A stretch of DNA of 32,000 nucleotides from positions 300,001-332,000 of the forward strand of contig CP042461.1 of the NCBI GenBank assembly GCA_004563595.2, in the 5' to 3' direction. Below the pieces are notes generated by a model. The model saw only the letters and a list, made by a program, of their open reading frames with translations, did no database searches and was not told the origin of the DNA. Positions 7,107 to 25,071 of this stretch are shown one piece after another (position 1 is the stretch's first letter; each line of letters opens with the position of its first letter). The position numbers and the translations under genes are program-made. This DNA is from Candidatus Saccharimonadota bacterium. GTDB lineage: Bacteria; Patescibacteriota; Gracilibacteria; BD1-5; UBA6164.

Positions 7107-10100
7107 ATGTTACAGTTATATGTAAAGATAGACCAAAATAAAGAGAAATGTTTCAGTATTGATGTGAGTTCTGAACTTACGCAAGATGAATCAAAGATTC
7201 TTTATGAAATTCTAGCCCCAGGCTGGGAAGTAGATCTAATCAGTCTTAGACCTTACCTTGATATTTGTGATGGGAAAGGTGTTGAGATTGGACCACGTAT
7301 GAACTTTGAAACAGCTTTTTCTACGAATGTAGTTTCTACATACCATAATATTGGTTTGCAGAAGGTTCTTCGTGTTGAAAAATCTATCCGGTATCTTACT
7401 GATAATGTTTCAAGAGTAATTGAAATACAATGTGATCGTATGACCCAAGAGGTCTATTATAGACCTCTTGGGTCATTTTCTCTTGATCGTCCTGTTTATG
7501 AAGTAGTTAAACTTGGGCTTTTTGAAAATGGTATTGATGCTTTTAGCTTACTGAAAGGTCTTTCTTTTAGTGAACAAGATAAACAGATTTATTATGATTA
7601 TTTTGTGAATAAAGAAAAGAGAAATCCTACGAATGTGGAACTGTTTGATTTATTAAACTCTAATTGTGAACACTCACGACATGGTTGGTTCAATGCACTT
7701 CAAATTATTGATGGGGTTGAGCAGGAACATTCTGCTTTTTCATTGGTTAAATCAACTTTACAAGCAAATAAAAATGGGAGTGTAATTGGTTTTCATGATA
7801 ATTCGAGTAGTATTCGTGGTTTTATTGGAAAAATATTAATACCAACTTGTCCTGGTCAACCTTCTGAATTTATTCCACGAGTAGTTGATTGGGATCTTAC
7901 CTTTACAGCTGAAACTCATAACTTTCCAACTGGTATTGCTCCATATCCTGGAGCAGCTACTGGTACAGGAGGTCGTTTACGTGATCAGATGGCAACAGGG
8001 AAAGGAAGCAATGTTATAGCTGGTACTATTGGTTATGATGTTTCGTCTCTTCATATTGAAGGTTATGAATTGTCTGGTGAAAATCCAGATTTTCATTCTC
8101 CTGAGAATATGGCGACTGGCTTAGAAATCTTGATTCAAGGAAGTAACGGTGCCTCTAATTATGGAAATGAGTTTGGTGAACCTCTCATTCAAGGTTATAG
8201 TCGTAATTTTGACCTGAGAATTCCAAATGGTGAACGCTGGGCTTATGTAAAGCCTATATTGTTTACTGGTGGAATTGGGCAAATGCGACATGAACATCAT
8301 GAAAAAGGTCATGCAGAAAAAGGTTTACTTATCGTTCAGGTAGGTGGTCCTGCATATCGTATTGGCTTTGGAGGTGGTGCTGCTTCTAGTATGCATCAAG
8401 GTGATAATGATGCTGAACTTGATTTCAATGCCGTGCAACGTGGCAATGCTGAAATGGAGAAAAAACTGTATAATGTTGTACGTACTTGTAATGAGATGGG
8501 TGAAAACTCTCCTATTGTAAGTACACATGACCAAGGTGCAGGTGGTCCAGGAAATATACTGAAAGAACTTGTTGAAGAATCTGGAGGGAGAGTTGATATT
8601 CGTAAAATCAATAGTGGTGATCCGACATTATCGGTATTGGAACTGTGGGTTTGTGAATTTCAAGAACGTGGTGGTTTTTTAATTCCTCGTGATCGAATTG
8701 AAGAATTTTTATTAATTTGTGAAAGGGAGAAAGTTCCATGTGAAATATTGGGTGAAGTGACTGGTGATGGACGTTTTGTAGTTGAAGATAGTCATGATGG
8801 ATCAACTCCTGTTGATTTTGACTTAAAAGCAATTCTTGCTGATTTCCCTCGTACTACGTATGAGGATACAAGAATTGATCTTGGATTACAATCACTTGAA
8901 ATTCCTGATGAATTAACTGTATCTGTTGGACTTGAGAGAGTTTTTAAACTTCTTTCTGTTGGTTCAAAAGGTTACTTAGTTCACAAGGCTGATCGAAGTG
9001 TAAGTGGCCTAATTGCTCAGCAACAGTGTGTAGGTCCTCTCCAGTTACCATTATCAAATGTTGCTGTAATTGCTCTTTCTCATTTTGAGTTATCGGGTGG
9101 AGCAACAGCTCAAGGTGAAAAGTCGCCTTGTATGATAGTGAATCCAGAAGCAGGAGCTCGTTTATCGATCGCAGAAATGCTCATGAATATGATGTGTGCT
9201 GGTATTACTGATATTAAGCATGTTAAATGTTCTGTAAATTGGATGTGGGCACCAAAAAAACCAGGTGAAGGAGCTGCATTGTATGATGCAGTAAATTCTA
9301 TGTCTCAATTTATGCCACTCCTTGGAGTAGCAGCAGATGGAGGGAAAGATAGTCTATCTATGGCAGCTGAAGTGAATGGTGAATTAGTAAAATCACCAAG
9401 AACAATGGTTGTTTCAGGGTATGCTCCAGTAGCAGATATTACAAAAGTTGTCACACCAGATATTAAAAAACCTGGTGAAAGTCAGCTTTTGTATATTGAT
9501 TTATCTGCTGACTTGGCTCGCTTAGGTGGCTCAGCTTTTGCTCAATCACTTGGGCAGATCGGGAATGAATGTCCTGATATTGATACTCCAGAGCTATTAT
9601 TAAGTTTATTTGATGCTATTCAGGGGTTAATTACTGAAGATTTCATCTTGTCATATCATGATATTAGTGATGGAGGTCTTATTACGACGCTTTGCGAAAT
9701 GGCTATGGCTGGTAATTGTGGTATTGATGTTAATATACAGACTCAACAGGAAGCAATAAATAAGTTGTTTGCTGAAGAGCCAGGAATTATCATTGAAGTA
9801 CAACATGATTATATTGATGAAGTATTAATGGCTTTAAGCTTAAAAGGGGTAGGTTTTCAAAAAATTGGTGAAACAATTCCATGGAAGCATATAACTATTC
9901 ACGTAAATGACGATGAGGAGTTTAATCTAGCAACAAAAGATGTTCGTCAGTGGTGGAATGAAACTTCGTATCAGTTAGAAAAACAACAAGGAAATACTTG
10001 TGCTGATGATGAAAAAATGAATACTGATGACTTAAAAAATCCACAGTATTCATTAAGTTTTGTTCCTGAAATTACTTCAAAAGAAATTTTGGAGTCTGAT

Positions 10101-10895
10101 GAAAAAACCTGGGTTGCGGTGATTCGTGAAGAAGGAAGTAATGGAGATAGGGAAATGATATCAGCGCTTTATATGGCTGGTTTATGTCCTGTTGATATTA
10201 CTATGTATGATTTGCTGAATAAAAAAGTAGATCTTGCAGCTTTCCGTGGTGCTGTCTTTGTAGGAGGTTTCTCTTATGCAGATTATCCGGAATCAGCCAA
10301 AGGTTGGGCTGCAACTATTAGAAACAATCCAAGATTAAAAACTATGTTTACAGCGTTTAAGGAGCGCAGTGATACCTGGTCATTTGGTGTTTGTAATGGT
10401 TGTCAAATGATGGCTTTACTTGGTTGGGCAGTTTCTTCTGATATTCCTGAAGTAGAAAGACCTCGTTTTGTAAAAAATGTGTCTGATAAATTTGAGTCTC
10501 GTTATACTACGGTAAAAATACCAGAAAGTCGTTCGATTATGTTTAGTGGAATGTCTGGTTCGGTGTTACCGGTGTGGAGCGCTCATGCTGAAGGACAAAT
10601 TTTTGCTGATCAAGAATTATTAGCAAAAATGAGAATAGAAGGAAATGTTCCAGTGTTATACGCAGATAATGAAGGGGAAGAAACTCAAGATTATCCGTTT
10701 AATCCGAATGGGTCACCACTAGCAATTGCTGGTTTGTGTAGTTCAGATGGTCGGCATACAATTATGATGCCGCATCCAGAAAGACTTTTTCAGACTTGGC
10801 AGTTCTCATGGTTACCTGAAGAAATGCAAAACTTAACTGCATCACCTTGGCTGAAGATTTTTCAGAATGCCAGAGAGTGGTGTGAACAAAATTAA
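7107..10895 (+). CDS. purL: Phosphoribosylformylglycinamidine (FGAM) synthase, single-chain large PurL
   Basis: 1262 aa, uninterrupted even under the standard code. The glutaminase nucleophile GVCNGCQMM and the MMPHPER motif are present. All Gly codons (about 112 by hand count) are GGN and none is TGA. Ends in TAA. Confidence 0.95.
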   Translation: MLQLYVKIDQNKEKCFSIDVSSELTQDESKILYEILAPGWEVDLISLRPYLDICDGKGVEIGPRMNFETAFSTNVVSTYHNIGLQKVLRVEKSIRYLTDNVSRVIEIQCDRMTQEVYYRPLGSFSLDRPVYEVVKLGLFENGIDAFSLLKGLSFSEQDKQIYYDYFVNKEKRNPTNVELFDLLNSNCEHSRHGWFNALQIIDGVEQEHSAFSLVKSTLQANKNGSVIGFHDNSSSIRGFIGKILIPTCPGQPSEFIPRVVDWDLTFTAETHNFPTGIAPYPGAATGTGGRLRDQMATGKGSNVIAGTIGYDVSSLHIEGYELSGENPDFHSPENMATGLEILIQGSNGASNYGNEFGEPLIQGYSRNFDLRIPNGERWAYVKPILFTGGIGQMRHEHHEKGHAEKGLLIVQVGGPAYRIGFGGGAASSMHQGDNDAELDFNAVQRGNAEMEKKLYNVVRTCNEMGENSPIVSTHDQGAGGPGNILKELVEESGGRVDIRKINSGDPTLSVLELWVCEFQERGGFLIPRDRIEEFLLICEREKVPCEILGEVTGDGRFVVEDSHDGSTPVDFDLKAILADFPRTTYEDTRIDLGLQSLEIPDELTVSVGLERVFKLLSVGSKGYLVHKADRSVSGLIAQQQCVGPLQLPLSNVAVIALSHFELSGGATAQGEKSPCMIVNPEAGARLSIAEMLMNMMCAGITDIKHVKCSVNWMWAPKKPGEGAALYDAVNSMSQFMPLLGVAADGGKDSLSMAAEVNGELVKSPRTMVVSGYAPVADITKVVTPDIKKPGESQLLYIDLSADLARLGGSAFAQSLGQIGNECPDIDTPELLLSLFDAIQGLITEDFILSYHDISDGGLITTLCEMAMAGNCGIDVNIQTQQEAINKLFAEEPGIIIEVQHDYIDEVLMALSLKGVGFQKIGETIPWKHITIHVNDDEEFNLATKDVRQWWNETSYQLEKQQGNTCADDEKMNTDDLKNPQYSLSFVPEITSKEILESDEKTWVAVIREEGSNGDREMISALYMAGLCPVDITMYDLLNKKVDLAAFRGAVFVGGFSYADYPESAKGWAATIRNNPRLKTMFTAFKERSDTWSFGVCNGCQMMALLGWAVSSDIPEVERPRFVKNVSDKFESRYTTVKIPESRSIMFSGMSGSVLPVWSAHAEGQIFADQELLAKMRIEGNVPVLYADNEGEETQDYPFNPNGSPLAIAGLCSSDGRHTIMMPHPERLFQTWQFSWLPEEMQNLTASPWLKIFQNAREWCEQN

Positions 10896-11056: not shown

Positions 11057-11953
11057 ATGTTCCAATTTCTAGAAGTATATAAGTTTTTGTTATTCAGTAG
11101 TTTTTTGAATTCAAAAGAGAGATGATATGATGATTTATCGACTGTATGAATACTTGCTACAGGATGACCAGATTGAGGTTGAAGTTGAGCAAGAGTATTA
11201 ATAGAAAAAATATTAAATTGAGAATTTGCTGAAGTAAATAAACTTGTATTAATTACAAATTATACAAAAGGATGAGTTGCAAAAATATTTGAAAAGTATA
11301 AAGATCAACTACAAGAAATAGATGTAAACCTGGAACTAAAAATAGTTAAAAATTTTCCAAAGAGGTGAGAAAATGGTGAATTTACTCCAGAAGATGATCA
11401 ATGGATCAGAGATACATATCAAGAAATTTTAACAACATATGGTTTAGATTACCTCCATTGCTCTTGATGGATGAAACATATTTTATGATTAAGCCCAAGT
11501 ATATCTCAAAATATTCATCCAGGTCCAACTAAAGAACCATATGGTTGACTCGGAATGCATGGAGATAATGTTCATGAATTGGTTTGGGAAGACTATCAAA
11601 AATGAATCATTAATCAATCATGTGTAACGATGCACTTCGTTATTGAAGAACTTGATAGAGGACCAATTTCAGTACAAATACCCGTAAGTATTGCTAGTTG
11701 CAAATCAGCTGATGATGTTTGATCTGAAGTAAACAAAACAGAACATAAATATCAATATATAGTGTATAAAATGTTACTAGAAGGTAAGATTACATGGTCA
11801 TGAAATAAAGAAGACCCCGTTCAAATTGATAAGGATGAACTAGAGAAGTATGATTTCCCTGAGGGGACAGTATTTGGTGGAGAGGTAGAATTAAACAAGT
11901 GGGCTTGATTAGCAGAGGCTGAAATGAATGCGTGGTTAGATGGGGAAGAATAA
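11057..11953 (+). CDS. purN: Formyltransferase, PurN-like (GAR transformylase) with N- and C-terminal extensions
   Basis: Code-25 translation gives ...GSGARVLIEKILNG...LVLITN...SQNIHPGPTKEPYGGLGMHG...CVTMHFVIEELDRGPISVQ. This is the PurN N-x-H and D-x-GPI catalytic pattern. About 16 in-frame TGA = Gly codons. The first in-frame ATG is at 11057, so the start is uncertain. Confidence 0.7.
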
Positions 11954-12058: not shown

Positions 12059-13219
12059 GTGAAAATGGTTGATTTATACGAAGTAGCTGGTGTAGATGTA
12101 GAGGCAGGTGATACTGCTTCTTCAATTGCAGCAAAATTTTGTAAAGAAACGTATCAAAATTCACCGATTGCATCAGTTGTTGATATGACAAATGGTAATT
12201 TTCGTGGACCACGAGCAATTGATTTGGATGATAAATTTCGTATGAAACCTTATTATCTCTCATGTGCTCCTGATGGCATTGGTACCAAAGTGGTATTACA
12301 TGATGCTGCGAAAACCTATGGTGTTGCTGCATTCGACCTTATAGCAATGACAAGTTTTGATCTTGTTCGTTGGGGAGGGATGCCAGTATTTTTTACATCT
12401 GTATTAGATGTAAGTAAATTAGGGAAACCTGATTCTGATTCATTTAAAGCAACGGTTGCCTTATACTCCGGTGCAGCAAAGGCTGCTACTGAAGTGGATA
12501 TGGTTATTTTGAATGGTGAAACTGCTGAATTGGGTGCTCAAGTAGCTTCAGAAAATCCTGATGGAACTTTACAGTTTAACTGGGGTGGTTCTGCTCAAGG
12601 ATTATATCATCCTGATAAGATGATACTAGGAAAGACGCTGAAGCCTGGTCAAGTTATTATGTTGTTAAAAGAAAATGGATTTCGTAGTAATGGTATTTCA
12701 TTAGTACGATCAATTTTTGCTCATCAATATGGTAAAGACTGGTATACAAAACCAGATGCACAAAAATATATTCGTATGGCAGCAGAACCATCTGTTCTTT
12801 ATGATAAGTTTTTTTGTAGTATCAATGGTTGGTATGAAGATGATTCACAACGGATTAAAGTTCATTCATTGGTTCATCTCTCAGGAGGGAGTTTTGAATC
12901 AAAATTTGGGAAAGATATTCTTTACCCTCTTGGCTTATCGGCTGATATCTCTGATCCATGGGAATTACCTGAAATCATGCAAGAGTGCTCCGAATGGGGA
13001 ACTTCAGATGGAAAAATTGATGATTTAACATTATATAGAACCTGGAATGGAGGCCAGGGAGCATTAGCTGTTATTGATAAAATTGATGCAGAAAAATTTA
13101 TGGAAGAAGCGACAAGATTTGGCTTAGAAGCAAAAATAGGAGGGGTAATAACAAAAAATGATACTCCATCTGTTCGATTAAAATCGAGTTTAACAGGGGA
13201 TGATATCATTTTTGGATAA
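12059..13219 (+). CDS. purM: AIR synthase (PurM)-like protein
   Basis: Sequence: YEVAGVDVEAGD...CAPDGIGTKV...AFDLIAMTSFDLVRWGGMPVFF...ILNGETAELG...ENGFRSNGISLVR. The SD aaaggagag favours ATG 12065 over the track's GTG 12059. About 37 Gly codons, none TGA. Ends in TAA. Confidence 0.85.
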   Translation: MKMVDLYEVAGVDVEAGDTASSIAAKFCKETYQNSPIASVVDMTNGNFRGPRAIDLDDKFRMKPYYLSCAPDGIGTKVVLHDAAKTYGVAAFDLIAMTSFDLVRWGGMPVFFTSVLDVSKLGKPDSDSFKATVALYSGAAKAATEVDMVILNGETAELGAQVASENPDGTLQFNWGGSAQGLYHPDKMILGKTLKPGQVIMLLKENGFRSNGISLVRSIFAHQYGKDWYTKPDAQKYIRMAAEPSVLYDKFFCSINGWYEDDSQRIKVHSLVHLSGGSFESKFGKDILYPLGLSADISDPWELPEIMQECSEWGTSDGKIDDLTLYRTWNGGQGALAVIDKIDAEKFMEEATRFGLEAKIGGVITKNDTPSVRLKSSLTGDDIIFG

Positions 13220-13624: not shown

Positions 13625-14050
13625 GTGCTATTATATATTTACTTATCTACTTCTGAGGATGGTCTTATGTCTATTTACGATAGTGAATATATTTTAAATT
13701 TATTTGATCTTATTATTACAAGAATAGGAGAGAATGTAAAAGAGCCAGAAAAATGTTGGTTTAAAGCTTCTTGTGGGGGTGAGCCAATAGCTTATACTAA
13801 ACTTAAAAGTTTATCTGATAAGAATAAAAAAACTTTTGTTTGGAGTATGGTTCTGATTCATGGTTTTATTGGTAAAACATTACTCCATGGTTTAGAATAT
13901 AAACGTCAAGGTGGAAAAAATAATTTACATTTTGACATGGACTTAGCCTTTGAAACAGATAAGGATAAAAAGGAATATATAGAGTTTCGTGAATTTGTGA
14001 TAAGTGCAGACTCTTCTGTAGAAATGCTTGATGCAGTTCTTGAAGACTAA
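13625..14050 (+). CDS. TGA-free hypothetical protein (127-141 aa)
   Basis: Uninterrupted ORF. The likely start is ATG 13667 (MSIYDSEY...). Gly codons are all GGN, W is TGG, the stop is TAA, and it has its own terminator. Confidence 0.55.
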   Translation: MLLYIYLSTSEDGLMSIYDSEYILNLFDLIITRIGENVKEPEKCWFKASCGGEPIAYTKLKSLSDKNKKTFVWSMVLIHGFIGKTLLHGLEYKRQGGKNNLHFDMDLAFETDKDKKEYIEFREFVISADSSVEMLDAVLED

Positions 14051-14253: not shown

Positions 14254-15069
14254 ATGTCAAAATGATATTCAATCGATCAAGTATTAGAGGTATATGAAAA
14301 TTTGGAAGAAAAGAAATGATTAGAAAAAATGATAGAACTCCTTATTAAAAATGTTTTTTGATGAGAAAATATAGAAAAAAATCAAATATTTAAAAAAGCA
14401 GTTCGTGATATAAGTACAGCTTATCCTATGATGAAGGAAAAATTTGAAGAAGTATTAAGAACTGATGGAGAAAGGTATTTTGAGCATTTGAGAGCGGTGG
14501 CAAATATTATATTAGAAAATATTTCAAATCCATCAATAGATAAAGTTCTTATTGCATTATTACATGATGCAATTGAAGATACAAAAATCGACTTTCATAC
14601 TTTATATATAATTTTTTGACCAAAAATTGCAATAGCTGTTCAAGCTTTAAGTAAAAAACCATGGGAGGATTACCGTATTAATACAGAAGTTACAAGAAAA
14701 GCATGTAAAATAAAAAGCAATGAAGAATACTTTGGGCATTTGAAGTCTTATGAGAGTATGAGAGAGCATGTGTTAAGTATAGCCGAAGAAAATACTATTA
14801 CTCTAAACTCATTGGAAATAGACGAGATAACTATGAATATATTTGATGTAAAATTTGCAGATAGGATTCATAACTTATCTACACAATGGGATCCTAATAA
14901 TATAGAAAAGGTAAAAAGAAAAATTGAAGAAACTCAATTTTATTTCCTTGATATAGCAAAAGAATTAAATATTGATGTATATAATCAGTTGAAATCTCTT
15001 ATTTTACAGTTAGAAATAAAAATAGCAAAAGTATCTAATGATGTAACTACAATAATCAATGAAGAATAA
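14254..15069 (+). CDS. HD-domain (p)ppGpp pyrophosphohydrolase (SpoT/Mesh1-like small alarmone hydrolase)
   Basis: Sequence: GERYFEHLRAVANIIL...ALLHDAIEDT...FGPKIAIAVQALSK...KFADRIHNLST. This is the H..HD..D pattern of the RelA/SpoT hydrolase domain. No synthetase domain. The frame continues through TGA codons. Confidence 0.8.
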
Positions 15070-15713: not shown

Positions 15714-17012
15714 ATGTTATTTTCAGATTTAGATATTATCAAACCTATTTTAAATGCTCTTGATAAACAAGGATATAAAAATCCTACTCCTATTCAAGAA
15801 AGAGCTATTCCTCATATCCTTGATGGAAAAGATGTACTTGGTTCTGCTCAAACTGGGACAGGGAAGACAGCAGCGTTTGCTATTCCAATATTACAACTCT
15901 TATCAAGAGAAAAAGAAATTTCAAATTTTTCAGGTGCTATTAAGTGTCTTATCCTGACACCGACTCGTGAGTTAGCAATTCAGATAGAGGAAAATATAAA
16001 AGAGTACTGAGCTCAGTTATGACTTCGTCATTCCGTTATTTTTGGTGGAGTAAGTCAAGGTTCACAAGTCAGAAAACTAAAAGCAGGAGTTGATATCCTG
16101 GTAGCCACTCCATGAAGATTATTAGACCTCATGAATCAATGATATGTTGATTTAAAAAAAGTTGAAATATTCACACTCGATGAAGCAGATAGAATGCTGA
16201 ATATGGGGTTTATAAATGATGTAAAAAAGGTCCTTGCAAAATTACCAACTAAAAGACAAACACTGTTCTTTTCAGCAACCATGCCAAAAGAAATAGCTTG
16301 ACTTGCAGATTCTATTTTAAATCATCCTGTAAAAATTGAAGTCACTCCTGTTTCTTCTACGGCTGATACAGTCAAACAAGTAGTATTTTTTGTTACTAAA
16401 TGAAGCAAAAAACTTCTTTTAATAGATATTTTGGAATATAAAGGGATAAAATCACTCCTTGTTTTTACCCGTACGAAACATGGGGCTGATAATGTAGTGA
16501 AAGATCTTGTAAAATCAGGGGTAACAGCTGAAGCTATCCATGGAAATAAATCACAAAATGCCCGTCAAAGAGCACTCAAAAACTTCAAAGGATGAGTAAC
16601 AAGAGTTCTCGTTGCCACTGATATAGCAGCCAGAGGGATTGATATCGATGACCTCACATTTATGGTCAATTATGACTTATCAAATGAACCAGAAACATAT
16701 GTACATCGTATTGGTCGTACTTGAAGAGCTTGAAAAAATTGAGTTGCCTACTCTTTTTGTTGCCAAGAGGAAGTAGAATATCTCTTGGATATTCAAAAAA
16801 TGCTATGAAAAAAAATACCAGTGAATGAAAAACATCCATATGCAATAACAGTTGATGAAAGCATTAAGGCTCCAAAAAGACAACAATGAGGAAGAGGGAG
16901 ATGAGGACGCTGAGGCTGAAACTCTTCAAGACATTGAAATAGTTCAAAGTGAAAAAGACCAGCTGTGGCGAAAAGGAAAAATAATGTAAAAAGGAATAGA
17001 AATAAAATATAG
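15714..17012 (+). CDS. DEAD-box ATP-dependent RNA helicase
   Basis: Motifs present: Q motif, [23 protein letters not shown] (the G is TGA at 16113-16115), DEAD, SAT and HRIGRTGR. The tail is RG-rich (GGRGRGGRGGG), largely TGA-encoded. Confidence 0.95.
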
Positions 17013-17018
17013 TTTAAT

Positions 17019-17053
17019 AAAAAAGCTGCCTAATCAATAGGGAGCTTTTTTTT
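17019..17053 (+). terminator. Rho-independent terminator
   Basis: agctgcc...gggagct hairpin with one mismatch, followed by a T-run. Confidence 0.6.
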
Positions 17054-17262
17054 GTAATTTATTTTGGTACTTCTCAGTATGATATTAGAGCTTTTAGTGA
17101 GTATATAAGTGACATTAATTTGAATAATTTTATATTGGTATATAATAAAATTATATAGTTGAGAATTTATTATCATGTTAATTTTTGAATTTGAAAAATA
17201 AGATTGAAGGTTGATTGCATTGAGGTTGAGAGGATTCTCAAATCTATGTTATCCATCCTAAT

Positions 17263-17814
17263 GTGAATCATTATTTGAGCTATGTGCTCGATAGTAAAGA
17301 AGTACGTAAAAAGCTTGGGAATGATACGATGTTTCATTTTGATCAGTCGCCACTGGTGTATGCTGAAATTTGGAAACCCATAGAGATTAGCTTTGCTAAA
17401 TTATCTGGTGTTAAGAAAGGTGATATCCCGGATTTGATGATTCGTAATGGCCGTTTGTTCTTGAATGAAAAAGCATATGAATGTTTGCGTGAAACTTTGG
17501 AAGCTCATGGAGAATTTTTACCTGTTACATTTGGTAGTGAAGCTGGTTATCTTTTCAATATTTTGAGGTTGGCCGATGATATTGGGGGGCTCAATCAAAA
17601 ACTCAGTACTAGAGATGAACATGATGATTTACAATCATTGGTCTTCCATGAAGAGAAAATGATAAAAATATTGGTTTTTCGCACCTCTTTTGATGATTAT
17701 ATGGGTGTGTATTGCAATGGTGCCTTTAAGCAAGCCGTGGAAAATGCTGGATTGAAAGGACTTGTTTTTAGTCTGGATTTGTGAAATATCTTTCCGACAG
17801 ATTCTTCTGTGTAA
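17263..17814 (+). CDS. TGA-free Imm11/DUF1629-like putative immunity protein
   Basis: 173-aa ORF from GTG 17263 (alternative ATG at codon 23) with no internal TGA. The layout ..PD...L.L.EKAYECL...GEFLPV...YLFNIL...VFR... recalls DUF1629/Imm11. The standard-code stop is TGA 17782-17784. Code 25 reads on as G-NIFPTDSSV to TAA at 17812-17814. Confidence 0.55.
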
Positions 17815-17832
17815 AAGCTAGTAAAAAATTAA

Positions 17833-17863
17833 TAAAAAAAACCTAATAAATAGGTTTTTTTTT
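17833..17863 (+). terminator. Rho-independent terminator
   Basis: aaaaaaaaccta-ataaa-taggttttttttt hairpin. Confidence 0.7.
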
Positions 17864-17878
17864 ATTTTTGTAAAAAAA

Positions 17879-17908
17879 TGGTACTCCTGAGGGGTTGAAT
17901 ACTCGAAC
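17879..17908 (-). other. Degenerate tRNA 3'-end-like remnant (possible distal att site)
   Basis: The reverse complement is GTTCGAGTATTCAACCCCTCAGGAGTACCA, which has a T-loop-like GTTCGAG and a terminal ..GTACCA. It begins TGGTAC on the plus strand, like the tRNA-Arg at 24996. It is a GC-rich patch in AT-rich spacer. Confidence 0.3.
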
Positions 17909-18079
17909 TTTTATAGGTTATTGGAGGAGATTGATTTGGACAATTTGAAAGAATTTTTGCAAGATATTCGTAAAGTAATCAGATAATTTCTATTTATCTA
18001 ATAATGATAATTTTGTTAATAGTCAATTAGGAATTAAAAAAACTTTAAAAAATTAATACTATGTTAATGTCTCATCATT

Positions 18080-18118
18080 ATAGTTAGTAGGTTATAACTT
18101 TATACACCTACTAACTAT
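18080..18118 (+). promoter_or_regulatory. 13-bp perfect inverted repeat overlapping the start codon of the 1116-aa gene
   Basis: atagttagtaggt (18080-18092), 13-nt loop, acctactaactat (18106-18118). The ATG is at 18117-18119. Confidence 0.6.
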
Positions 18119-21100
18119 GAACTTTCAACAACTTTTAGAAAATATTGAAACATCTCCAGAAATTTTAGAATACTTAAAATATGAAGATTCAACACAAGTG
18201 TTGGATGATATTTTGGAAAACTATAACGATGAACAAGACTATAATTTTCTTTTTCAAATATTTCACACATATATAGGGAATAATTTTCCTTATATTAGGA
18301 ATATATGATTTATTTTTGAAAAACTTATTGAAGAGTGAAAAGTAGAAAACACTCAAGAATTAGAGGAGTTTTTAATTGAAAAACTAACTCATTATGCTGA
18401 TAAGTTAAGAGAATGAGATAGGGATATTCTAAGTAAACTCCTTGTTAGTTTTACAACTCGTACAGAAGAAATGAAAGTTATATATAATAACCTAGAAAAA
18501 AAAGGGTTTTTAAGTGTCTCATCAGTATGATTTTTTACTAAATATTTTGCGAAAGAAGAAAAATGAGACTTTTTCATCAGGTCTTTTTTATATGATGAAA
18601 AAACATGGTTTAGAGGAGTGTTTATCTCTGGAAAAAATGAGGAATATCCTTTAAAAGGTATACAGAAAAGTATTCTTGATTTAGAACAAAAGCAATTTGC
18701 TCACTTTTTAACGGAAATTTCTAAAAAAGAAAATATAGCTTCATGGATTCGTAATGATAATGATTTTACAGATAATATTATAGCTACGGCAAAGTGATAT
18801 AAATTATTTTCGGAGTTATATATATTACTTACGAATATGTTAATGTATTCTAGAAATTATGAATACTCAGAAACTGATGCATATACAACCAAATTAAGAA
18901 CTATATTTGATATATGTAAGAATCAGAAACCAGTCCATTTTTATATTAGATTTTTTAAAGATATAAACTATTGAAAAGAAGGGTTCTATTATTTTAGATT
19001 GTTTGATGATTTTATAGGTCAAACACTACAAACAGAAGAAGACGTAAAGGATTTATTAAGTATGCCTGATTTACAAGAAAATAACTATATTTTAGGATAT
19101 AGGATATTTCAGTTTGTAAAACACTCGGATAGAAAAAATATAATTGAGTTTTTTCAAAAACAAATAGGGAAAGAAATTACTTTACATAGTGAAAATCAAA
19201 AAAAATATCTGGAAAATCAAAAAAAAATCCAAACAGAACAAGATAAGGAAATTAAGGAAGAAATTCAACAAGAATTAATAGTGGCTAAAGATACTGATAG
19301 AAAAATATCTTTTAAATTATTAGAATTTTATATTGGACAAAGTGATTTGTTTGAGGAAGAAAATATCGAGCAAATTATTACTGAACAAGTGAAAAGATAT
19401 TTTGAGTTTAAAAATTTAGATCCAACAAGAAAAGAAGCATTAGAGTCATTTAAAAAAACTGATACATGACATAGCTCTTATCAATTTCTTATTGATTCTT
19501 CTTTAGAAACTATACTAAAAACTGCAGAAAAACTTGGTATAGATTTATCAGAATACACAAGTAAAATAGTATGATTTATTCCCTTTAAGTATGATGGGGA
19601 GGATTTAAAGAAAATCCTTGATCTGGTTGCAGTTAATATTTCTTCAAAGGATATTGATCATATACTTTATGTATACAATACTTACCCTGACATTAATAGA
19701 TATCATATTTTTAATCTTATTTATTTTTACAAAAGAGTAAAAGATATAGTATCAGAAAATTGAGAGCAAAGAGCAGGATTTATCGGATTATTCAAAGAAC
19801 TATTAGAAGATGACTCAGTTTTTGTTTCCGATAAATTAGAAACATTAGTGGAATTGGAAGAATTATGAGTTGAAAAAAGTATTTACCAAGGTGTATTTGA
19901 TAAATATGATGCTGTATTTCCTGGTTTTAATTATTACAAGGACTACTTAGATAGTACTGGTAAATATGATTTCCAATTAGTTTTTAAGTCAAATGAACTA
20001 CTCATAAAACAAGGATATGTAGACGCTATTCAATGGAGAATTGATCAAGTAAGAAATTGATTTATCTCTTGTCCTGAAAAAAAGTGATGGTGATCTATTA
20101 CAAATTTACAATCAGAAATACATTTTGGTAGAGAGTTTATTCAAATATTTTCCGATTTTAAAACGGAACAATGTATACCAGAGATACTTGAATTATTAGA
20201 ATTTACATTTGAAAATTATAAGAAGTATCCAGAGTTTAGTAGATATATATGGGAAGGGATAAAAAAGTATTTAGACTGACTGCAAGGAGTATCTGAAATA
20301 ACTATTTTGATAGAGGGGATATGAGAATTATTGTTTAAAACTGAAAGTAGTGAAATTTCTGTTTATTTTAAAAGGTATATTGATGAGATAGATAATGGCA
20401 ATTTTATTGTTAATATAGATAATAGTATTCATGCCCACGAATACATTGAATTAAAGGAAAATATTTCAAAAGTTATTAAACAAAAAAATAAAATAGAAAG
20501 AATAATGGGTGATTTTGAAGAAAAAAATCACCGTAAGGATGAAGAAATTAAAGAGCTAAGAGAAAGATTAAATGAGATGGATAACAGTTACAGAAAATTA
20601 TCAACTGAAAATGAGTATAAAAATAAGAAAATAAAAGAATTATGAGGAAAGGATATAGTGATATTAACCGAATGAAAAACTGATTGGAAGCATTTAATGA
20701 GGGCTTGGAAAGAATTAAGTAATATGTGATTATTAAAAAGTAATAGTATAGCATATGACTTTGAAAACTATGTTAAAAAATATGAAGATATAAATAATCT
20801 TATATGATGAACCGATTCCATAGATGGCTTTGTGAAAAGTTTTGCTGAATTATTTCCTGAAACATTAATTATAGTTATATTTGATACCGATTCATTTGGT
20901 CAAGGTAAAGAATTAAGGCAATTAAGAGTAAACTATAAAGAGAAGAAAAAAAGGAAGAAATTTAAACAATATGATTACTATAATTTTAAAAAAGAGGATG
21001 AAATTTTAGGTATTGAAAATACATATAAAAACTTATATTTATTTTTTCTACCAGTACCTCAATTTAGAAAAAAAAGCACTTTTTATAATAAAGAAATATG

Positions 21101-21467
21101 TATTGAGTTCTATTATGATGAATACTTATTAAATAGGTATCAATTTATTAGAAAATGTCAGCGAGGTCCAATTATACATAAATATGATAAATCTGTTCAT
21201 TTAATAGATAATATACATTATAGTTTTGGAAAAAAAGATAGACTTATTTTTGATGCAAATGAAAAATTACCATCTCATGATATGAATGGTGACCCATGTA
21301 GAGGGAATCTTTTGTATACTAAAAATCATTTTGCAGAAGATATACTAAATAATTTCCCTAGAAATAACCCTGAATATAAATCACCTTTAGATTACACTTG
21401 GAAAAGATTTTTACCAATATTTAAATGAATTAATGAAATTATTATAGATTTTAAATCCAAATTATAA
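18117..21467 (+). CDS. Large (1116 aa) helical protein with a C-terminal coiled coil and a Toprim-like (E...DxD) module
   Basis: Track ORFs 18117, 18999, 20331 and 20832 are all in one frame, separated only by TGA. An in-frame TAG at 18081 fixes the start. The C-terminus reads GKDIVILTEGKTDWKHL ... LIIVIFDTDSFGQG ... ICIEFYY. No P-loop is seen. Confidence 0.75.
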
Positions 21468-24995: not shown

Positions 24996-25071
24996 TGGTA
25001 CACCCGGCAGGGATCGAACCCACGCTAACCAAGGTCCGCGGCCTTGTGCTCTTCCACTGAGCTACGGGTGC
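24996..25071 (-). tRNA. tRNA-Arg (anticodon GCG), CCA-encoded
   Basis: 76-nt cloverleaf: GCACCCG-TA-GCTC-AGTGGAA-GAGC-A-CAAGG-CCGCGGA-CCTTG-...-GTGGG-TTCGATC-CCTGC-CGGGTGT-A-CCA. The acceptor and D arm resemble bacterial tRNA-Arg. The anticodon lies at 25037-25039. Confidence 0.8.

Follow-up and report, generated by a model that had tools for sequence, protein, structure and literature searches.

An orphan Imm11-type immunity gene, probably imported and adapted to the host code, in a Gracilibacteria-type genome that reads UGA as glycine

The locus and its genetic code

The DNA analysed here, referred to as the window, is a stretch of 32 kb with a GC content of 29.6%, and positions are counted from its first letter. 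An Imm11-type immunity gene lies on the forward strand downstream of a gene for a DEAD-box helicase. Further upstream, at 14254-15069 (+), a protein with an HD_4 domain (RelA/SpoT-type HD hydrolase, E 2e-6) is encoded; several genes with RelA/SpoT domains have been noted in another Gracilibacterium (PMC6851277). The gene directly downstream of the immunity gene, 18117-21467 (+), encodes 1116 amino acids with 22 TGA codons, which is host-like, and without any Pfam domain. A weak PADLOC match to AbiLii (E 6e-5, 21.7 bits) covers a region that by eye is Toprim-like (DIVILTEGKTD...), and this protein may be a defence or conflict gene product.

The genetic code was assigned from the window itself. 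Counted from stop to stop and with a minimum of 100 codons, the open reading frames number 21 and cover 13 kb under translation table 11; with TGA as sense they number 55 and cover 42 kb. Seventeen TGA codons of the helicase gene could be aligned with standard-code (Spirosoma) homologues; the columns hold Gly in 35 of 65 cells, seven of them are all Gly, and Trp is found in none. Because the helicase TGAs align to Gly and never to Trp, the window uses code 25 (UGA = Gly). The closest relatives of the helicase, with 76-80% identity, are all labelled Candidatus Gracilibacteria, and from these relatives the host appears to be of Gracilibacteria type. In the host genes of the window TGA makes up 289 of 503 Gly codons (57%), the start is almost always ATG and there are no Shine-Dalgarno motifs. 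A tRNA-Gly(UCA) was not found in the window. The features of the locus are given below.

17005..17100, + strand: copy A of a direct repeat, with the helicase terminator hairpin (17019-17052), a T-run and TGGTACTTCTCAG (17065-17077)
17109..17136, + strand: candidate sigma-70-like promoter, GTGACA-16-TATATT, 10 of 12 consensus matches, 50-80 nt 5' of the candidate starts
17185..17241, + strand: lineage-specific N-terminal extension and start region, with TTG at 17185, 17191 and 17215, TGA (Gly) at 17212, 17221 and 17227, and CAA at 17239-17241
17242..17811, + strand: core of the Imm11 subfamily, 190 codons, IYVIHP...DLGNIFPTDSSV, colinear and without gaps relative to the family of 197 amino acids
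17782..17784, + strand: TGA at the nearly invariant Gly of the DL-G-NIFPPD motif, placed by alignment and by GGN in the relatives
17812..17814, + strand: present stop codon TAA, where the relatives have Gln, Glu or Met (CAA in L001 and L006)
17822..17917, + strand: copy B of the direct repeat, with the terminator-like hairpin of the gene (17834-17862), a T-run and TGGTACTCCTGAG (17879-17891)
17830..17832, + strand: second in-frame TAA, exactly at the stop position of the family in the codon alignment
24996-25071, - strand: tRNA-Arg(GCG), the only tRNA in the window, from which the recoding is not directly confirmable

The reading frame described in an earlier note on this DNA was recovered as given there: it starts at GTG 17263, has 173 codons in table 11 and ends at TGA 17782-17784, it is free of TGA over 17263-17781 with 13 Gly codons that are all GGN, and when TGA 17782 is read as sense it continues with G-NIFPTDSSV to TAA 17812-17814. 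The start was misplaced in that note. The conserved N-terminus of the family is MIYVIHP, and IYVIHP with its invariant Pro is encoded 5' of the GTG, at 17242-17259. The Met position of the family is occupied by the CAA codon, the open frame reaches upstream as far as 17182, and this part of it has no in-frame ATG before IYVIHP. Three further in-frame TGAs precede GTG 17263, and the canonical start candidates are the three TTG codons; a start at any of them depends on two to three later TGAs being decoded as Gly. These TTGs have no clear ribosome-binding site, unlike the ATG norm in host genes; since host genes are ATG-started and without Shine-Dalgarno motifs, the start is not fixable by sequence. 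The database call of the window product (P0001) has 209 amino acids from TTG 17185 and shows W at the four TGAs.

The 19 codons of the extension are without demonstrable homology to the relatives, and homology to the family is found only from 17242 on. In the AlphaFold2 (AF2) model residues 1-13 of the product of 209 amino acids have a pLDDT below 50, and IYVIHP (residues 20-25) is modelled confidently as a beta-strand, at a pLDDT of about 93.

Two strong terminators had been proposed to flank the gene. The hairpins are A/T-rich, are followed by T-runs and fold better than shuffled sequences (17019-17052: dG -14.8, z -3.6; 17834-17862: dG -9.8, z -2.4), but a scan for consensus terminators calls neither of them. 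Both lie in the imperfect direct repeat, the copies of which share the hairpin core CCTAATnAATAGG and the motif TGGTACTyCTsAG in the same order, with a spacing of 36 versus 37 nt; within the 32 kb these two elements are found only in copies A and B. The alignment score of the repeat exceeds that of 2000 shuffles, and 3 of 799 A/T-rich genomic windows score as high against copy A, which puts the repeat moderately above background. With moderate confidence, the repeat can be taken to mean that the helicase terminator region was duplicated in connection with the insertion of the gene. The promoter candidate is a consensus match only, such sites being no commoner here than in shuffles of the region, and an Rfam search of the flanks gave nothing meaningful.

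The protein family and its conserved C-terminus

Among 5.8 billion proteins searched, the window's own product and 22 relatives were found, and 20 of these relatives have exactly 197 amino acids. The identity to the window protein is 42-75%, with 74-75% for the closest relative, P0002. When the profile search against Imm11 (PF07791) proposed in the earlier note was carried out, the subfamily members matched strongly (22 of 24 at E < 0.01, best E 5.9e-9), but the window protein itself, with 21.1-21.3 bits and E 2e-4, stayed below the gathering cut-off of 22.1. A precomputed match to PF07791 exists for 14 of the 22 homologues, P0002 among them. NCBIfam and PADLOC gave no match for the window protein.

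A structure model was built by AF2 with the family alignment, using the sequence of P0001 with W in place of Gly at the four TGAs, and reached a pLDDT of 87.3 and a pTM of 0.83. Foldseek against the PDB gave 6a4c (MXAN_0049) as the sole match at E <= 0.001 (E 2.4e-6, probability 1.00), with TM scores of 0.54/0.53 and 17% sequence identity, and a profile search of PDB sequences also found 6a4c, weakly (E 0.062). MXAN_0049 has been named the prototypic member of Imm11 (PMC12077181), and Imm11 (DUF1629) was described by Zhang et al. 2012 as immunity partner of Tox-AHH, Tox-HNH and Tox-SHH (PMC3482391). The borderline Pfam score, the strong matches of the relatives and the fold match to MXAN_0049 together place the window protein, as judged from profiles and a predicted structure, in a divergent Imm11 (PF07791/DUF1629) subfamily. 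The Imm11/DUF1629 affiliation, put forward in the earlier note, is supported by the Pfam matches of the relatives and by the fold.

An exhaustive profile search gave 1375 representative relatives at E <= 1e-3. A G-x-x-[FY]-P tail is specific to the subfamily of about 197 amino acids and is found in 31 of 173 family representatives. Trp at conserved Gly columns, as a sign of code-25 carriers, occurs in none of the 173 family proteins, a count that comprises only two such columns and in which the window protein also scores 0.

The C-terminus of the family can be written ...FSxDL-G-NIFPPDxxAxxPxxH. In all 22 homologues about 18 more residues follow ...DL. At the position of TGA 17782 a Gly is found in 21 of the 22 (G200, at least 90% conserved in the alignment), and the Phe and Pro of the tail are likewise conserved in at least 90% of the sequences. 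The window tail NIFPTD agrees with NIFPPD at five of six residues. The relatives' DNA was fetched for ten loci and the 3' ends were aligned codon by codon. In standard-code DNA (L001, L002, L005, L006 and L007) the codon at the TGA position is GGG, GGA, GGT or GGC, and in all six relatives' genes examined the stop codon is TAA, 18 codons after DL. The 3' codons of the window gene are GAT TTG TGA AAT ATC TTT CCG ACA GAT TCT TCT GTG TAA, and those of the closest relative, L001, are GAT TTA GGG AAT ATC TTT CCG CCA GAT TCA TCG GCG CAA.

TGA 17782 had been taken for the original stop of a captured gene, read through as Gly in the new host and followed by a tail of 10 non-native residues. Under table 11 the frame does stop there, the Pfam Imm11 match ends near ...VFS, just before this codon, and it has been suggested in principle that code-25 bacteria may read through the UGA stops of foreign genes (PMC8080830). 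The 22 homologues, however, all run past ...DL with G-NIFPPD...H and none of them stops at ...FSLDL, their nearly invariant Gly is encoded by GGN in standard-code DNA, and the tail is conserved family sequence in front of a TAA. This is the outcome that the earlier note had itself named as speaking against its proposal, and the read-through of an ancestral stop is refuted by it. Because the Gly is conserved in the homologues and GGN in standard-code DNA, TGA 17782 is a derived Gly codon, synonymous in the host. In genomes with UGA = Gly, an in-frame TGA near the end of a gene that looks imported need not be a fossil stop.

The window protein is not extended; it is 6 residues shorter than the family. 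The present stop drops the last 6 family residues, which are poorly conserved and form the least conserved part of the family. The most parsimonious origin of this stop would be a nonsense change from CAA to TAA. After it, 13 of 21 nt match L001, in A/T-rich sequence. The second TAA, in the same A/T-rich surroundings, may be a relic of the ancestral stop, which is suggestive only.

Signs of import and the toxin partners of the relatives

Among the Gly codons of the core TGA is used once in 14, compared with 57% in the host genes (binomial P = 1.3e-4). TGA makes up about 3.7% of host codons, from which simple arithmetic gives P of about 1.5e-3 for 173 codons without TGA. At 0.31, the GC content at third positions (GC3) exceeds that of every other ORF among the 29 in the window (host mean 0.20, sd 0.036, z = 2.9), and the nearest relative has 0.41. 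Where the same amino acid is encoded in both, third-position differences from GC in the nearest relative to AT in the window gene number 30 and the reverse 18. A GC3 between that of the host and that of the relative and the 30:18 bias would fit partial amelioration. A one-step synonymous change to TGA is possible from GGA only. A slow gain of TGA is therefore to be expected, and a "recent" import is recent in a relative sense.

The TGA depletion and the highest GC3 indicate import. The gene had also been said to be richer in GC than its flanks: its GC content of 0.36-0.37 does lie above that of the intergenic flanks (0.23-0.28), but it equals that of the upstream helicase gene (0.33-0.37), and as the helicase gene is equally GC-rich, overall GC is not diagnostic of import and the real outlier is GC3. 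An origin in a standard-code organism, as the earlier note had it, gains support from relatives in metagenome-assembled genomes (MAGs) of Proteobacteria, from the TGA-poor core and from the high GC3.

Next to the helicase gene of three related Gracilibacteria (helicase 76-80% identical) the Imm11 gene is absent and the downstream genes are different, synteny not being conserved. This absence fits an insertion, although an empty site is not demonstrable. The nearest relative, only 74-75% identical, does not point to a donor, and the direction of transfer is judged from where the relatives occur and from composition. The neighbours of the gene in the window are the DEAD-box helicase and uncharacterised host-like proteins, and among them no integrase, recombinase or other Imm family was detected; the surroundings do not look like a mobile island.

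Other TGA-free genes occur in the window. PurL (FGAR amidotransferase, 1262 amino acids; 7107-10895, +) has 0 TGA and 112 GGN codons and a PurM-like gene related to AIR synthase (12065-13219, +) has 0 TGA and 37 GGN, with a TGA-rich, host-like gene between them (11057-11953). Both have Shine-Dalgarno-like AAGGA/AAGGAG motifs upstream, unlike the host genes, and a host-like GC3 of about 0.20. The PurM-like protein has its nearest named relatives in a Tenacibaculum MAG (55%) and in standard-code Parcubacteria/Nomurabacteria (44-46%), and its best 120 relatives include no Gracilibacteria. The two genes are probably imports from a low-GC donor with the standard code. In the candidate phyla radiation (CPR), genes for purine synthesis are reportedly uncommon (PMC6851277). 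A small ORF, 13667-14050 (+), 127 amino acids from the first ATG, has 0 TGA and 9 GGN codons and no Pfam match; given its position directly behind the PurM-like gene, it may be part of the same imported segment. The absence of TGA looks usable as a quick flag of import in code-25 genomes, the two purine synthesis genes included.

The relatives are found in standard-code genomes in all cases examined, with Dongiaceae, Gammaproteobacteria and Cellvibrio MAGs among the named carriers. Six of the nine distinct loci (L001, L003/L004, L005, L007, L008 and L013) have a gene for 201 amino acids directly upstream of the Imm11 gene, with an ATGA (4-nt) overlap. Its product matches AHH (PF14412) with E 4e-10. 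The AHH domain comprises residues 75-170 of these toxins, in which domains for secretion or trafficking were not recognised. The remaining three loci (L002, L006 and L014/L015) are without the AHH toxin; these orphan relatives adjoin MerR, a phage-terminase-like ORF and ParE/ParD in standard-code bacteria. The modules also adjoin an ArdA anti-restriction gene, a TraG/VirD4 coupling protein gene and ParDE, and another neighbour is an ORF that by eye resembles a terminase small subunit. The GC content of the family gene is below that of the host locus in L002 and L003/L004. Because orphan copies recur beside mobile-type genes and GC is below that of the host loci, the AHH-Imm11 pair is a mobile two-gene cassette, itself mobile within Proteobacteria.

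The window gene is an orphan. As the earlier note had observed, no cognate toxin lies beside it, and no AHH-like sequence was found anywhere in the 32-kb window. An HNH/EndoVII-type toxin neighbour is thus a trait of the Imm11 subfamily, not of the window copy, which has the properties of an immunity gene of foreign origin without its toxin.

A possible relic of the toxin 3' end was suggested at 17200-17221 (GAAGG-TTG-TGCAT) by eye and by a likeness in MAFFT to the last 20 nt or so of the relatives' AHH genes. It was rejected, as an nhmmer profile of the last 45 nt of six toxin genes misses this site and has its best matches elsewhere in the window, with E of about 0.5.

By analogy with the family, the protein is likely to bind and neutralise AHH-type nuclease toxins from neighbours, host bacteria or mobile elements, and the most likely mechanism, judged from family membership, would be stoichiometric binding of the AHH (HNH/EndoVII) nuclease toxin. 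The toxins concerned could also be those of invading plasmids, conjugative elements and phages, in which case the protein would be an anti-addiction or antitoxin-like factor and not a defence against contact-dependent neighbours. The small size of the relatives' toxins with no recognised domain for secretion or trafficking, the position of the modules by TraG/VirD4, ArdA, ParDE and the terminase-like ORF, and the low GC content of the modules relative to the host loci agree with such a role. It is nevertheless an unlikely one: the characterised AHH-Imm11 pairs are delivered toxins, with T6SS and outer-membrane exchange in Myxococcus (PMC12077181), the short unannotated N-terminus of the relatives' toxins could be a delivery signal, and none of the viral contigs in IMG/VR encodes the subfamily.

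Integrity of the gene, proposed history and known systems

The window copy retains 53 of 55 highly conserved columns, one of the lost ones being the Met, and the relatives deviate at 0-6 columns. The dN/dS ratio is about 0.11 relative to L001 and 0.10 between two standard-code members; since dS to the nearest relative is near saturation (1.6), the ratio mostly reflects history before the transfer. The gene has also been assembled independently (L009), with 100% identity to the window copy.

A cassette that has lost its start and its C-terminal end could be a decaying pseudogene, untranslated and persisting because the insertion is young. The replacement of the family ATG by CAA with no in-frame ATG upstream, the TTG candidates without a convincing ribosome-binding site in a host with ATG-started genes, the loss of six C-terminal residues and the missing toxin in the window are compatible with decay. 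It is contradicted by a core of 190 codons without frameshift or premature TAA or TAG in a genome of 30% GC, by a conservation that lies within the range of functional relatives and by the one TGA of the core being synonymous in the host and placed at a conserved Gly. Moreover, 19 open codons that include three possible starts precede the core, the gene has a promoter-like site and a terminator hairpin of its own, and the residues lost are those that the family conserves least. Decay is thus improbable, and the best explanation is probably that of an imported orphan Imm11 gene that was later adapted to the host code.

The proposed history is the following. The gene at 17185/17215..17814 (+) would encode an orphan immunity protein of the divergent Imm11 subfamily. 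The donor-side form would have been the downstream partner, of about 197 amino acids, of the AHH (HNH/EndoVII-fold) nuclease toxin of 201 amino acids on mobile elements of Proteobacteria. A code-25 genome of Gracilibacteria type would have taken up only the immunity half of this pair by horizontal transfer, and the gene may have landed beside the terminator of the DEAD-box helicase gene; part of this terminator region was presumably duplicated on the far side of the inserted gene. After arrival one conserved Gly codon (GGR) would have changed to TGA, the preferred Gly codon of the host. The ATG of the family can have changed to CAA, with translation starting at an upstream TTG and crossing two to three more TGAs, and a sense codon (Gln in the closest relative) can have become TAA, by which 6 poorly conserved C-terminal residues were trimmed. 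The full protein would now be translatable only with a system in which UGA is Gly. The direction of transfer, the order of the mutations, the choice of start, the expression and the protective function of the window gene are all inferred in this account.

A wider scenario is possible but doubtful, in which a Gracilibacteria episymbiont or predator took the AHH immunity gene of a proteobacterium, made it code-dependent through a UGA at an essential conserved Gly and further UGAs in the start region, and survives the nuclease toxins of hosts or neighbours with it. Should the protein be produced and protect the cell, acquired orphan immunity would also be a trait of CPR bacteria living on, or preying on, AHH-bearing Proteobacteria. 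If this scenario is true, the locus would combine acquired interbacterial defence in CPR with a "code lock-in" after transfer between codes. It is a small, clean example of the fate of a gene after crossing a genetic-code boundary.

The window protein resembles the Imm11 prototype MXAN_0049 (6a4c) in its alpha+beta fold, the Imm11 profile matches it at borderline strength, and its relatives, like the genes of known Imm11 systems, lie directly downstream of an AHH (PF14412) toxin gene (PMC3482391, PMC12077181). It differs in scoring just under the gathering cut-off and in having 17% identity to 6a4c. The subfamily differs from Imm11 at large in the G-N-I-F-P-P-D tail, which is present in only 31 of 173 representatives, and in partner toxins that are standalone proteins of 201 amino acids without recognised trafficking domains. 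The window copy differs further in having no partner toxin and in being part of a code-25 genome.

Acquired orphan immunity genes are well known (10.1101/471110, PMC12247911). The window gene is similar to the AID systems of Bacteroidales and Vibrio in being a toxin-less, horizontally acquired immunity gene with a presumed protective role against the toxins of other bacteria. In the AID systems, however, immunity genes form arrays on mobile elements that also carry recombinases, and protection has been shown experimentally (10.1101/471110, PMC12247911), whereas the window has a single predicted immunity gene, beside which neither a recombinase nor a second immunity gene lies.

Horizontal transfer into genomes with UGA = Gly has been described for 126 genes in Vampirococcus, defence systems included (PMC8080830). 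As in the transfers known from code-25 CPR bacteria (Absconditabacteria, Gracilibacteria), the window gene appears to be a standard-code import. It differs from these in the detail seen after the transfer, with a conserved Gly changed to TGA and a start region that needs UGA as sense. In a limited literature search no description was found of a conversion of Gly to TGA or of a UGA-dependent start region in an immunity gene. The kind of system is thus already known, and the twist is an imported gene that is fully translatable only under the code of its host.
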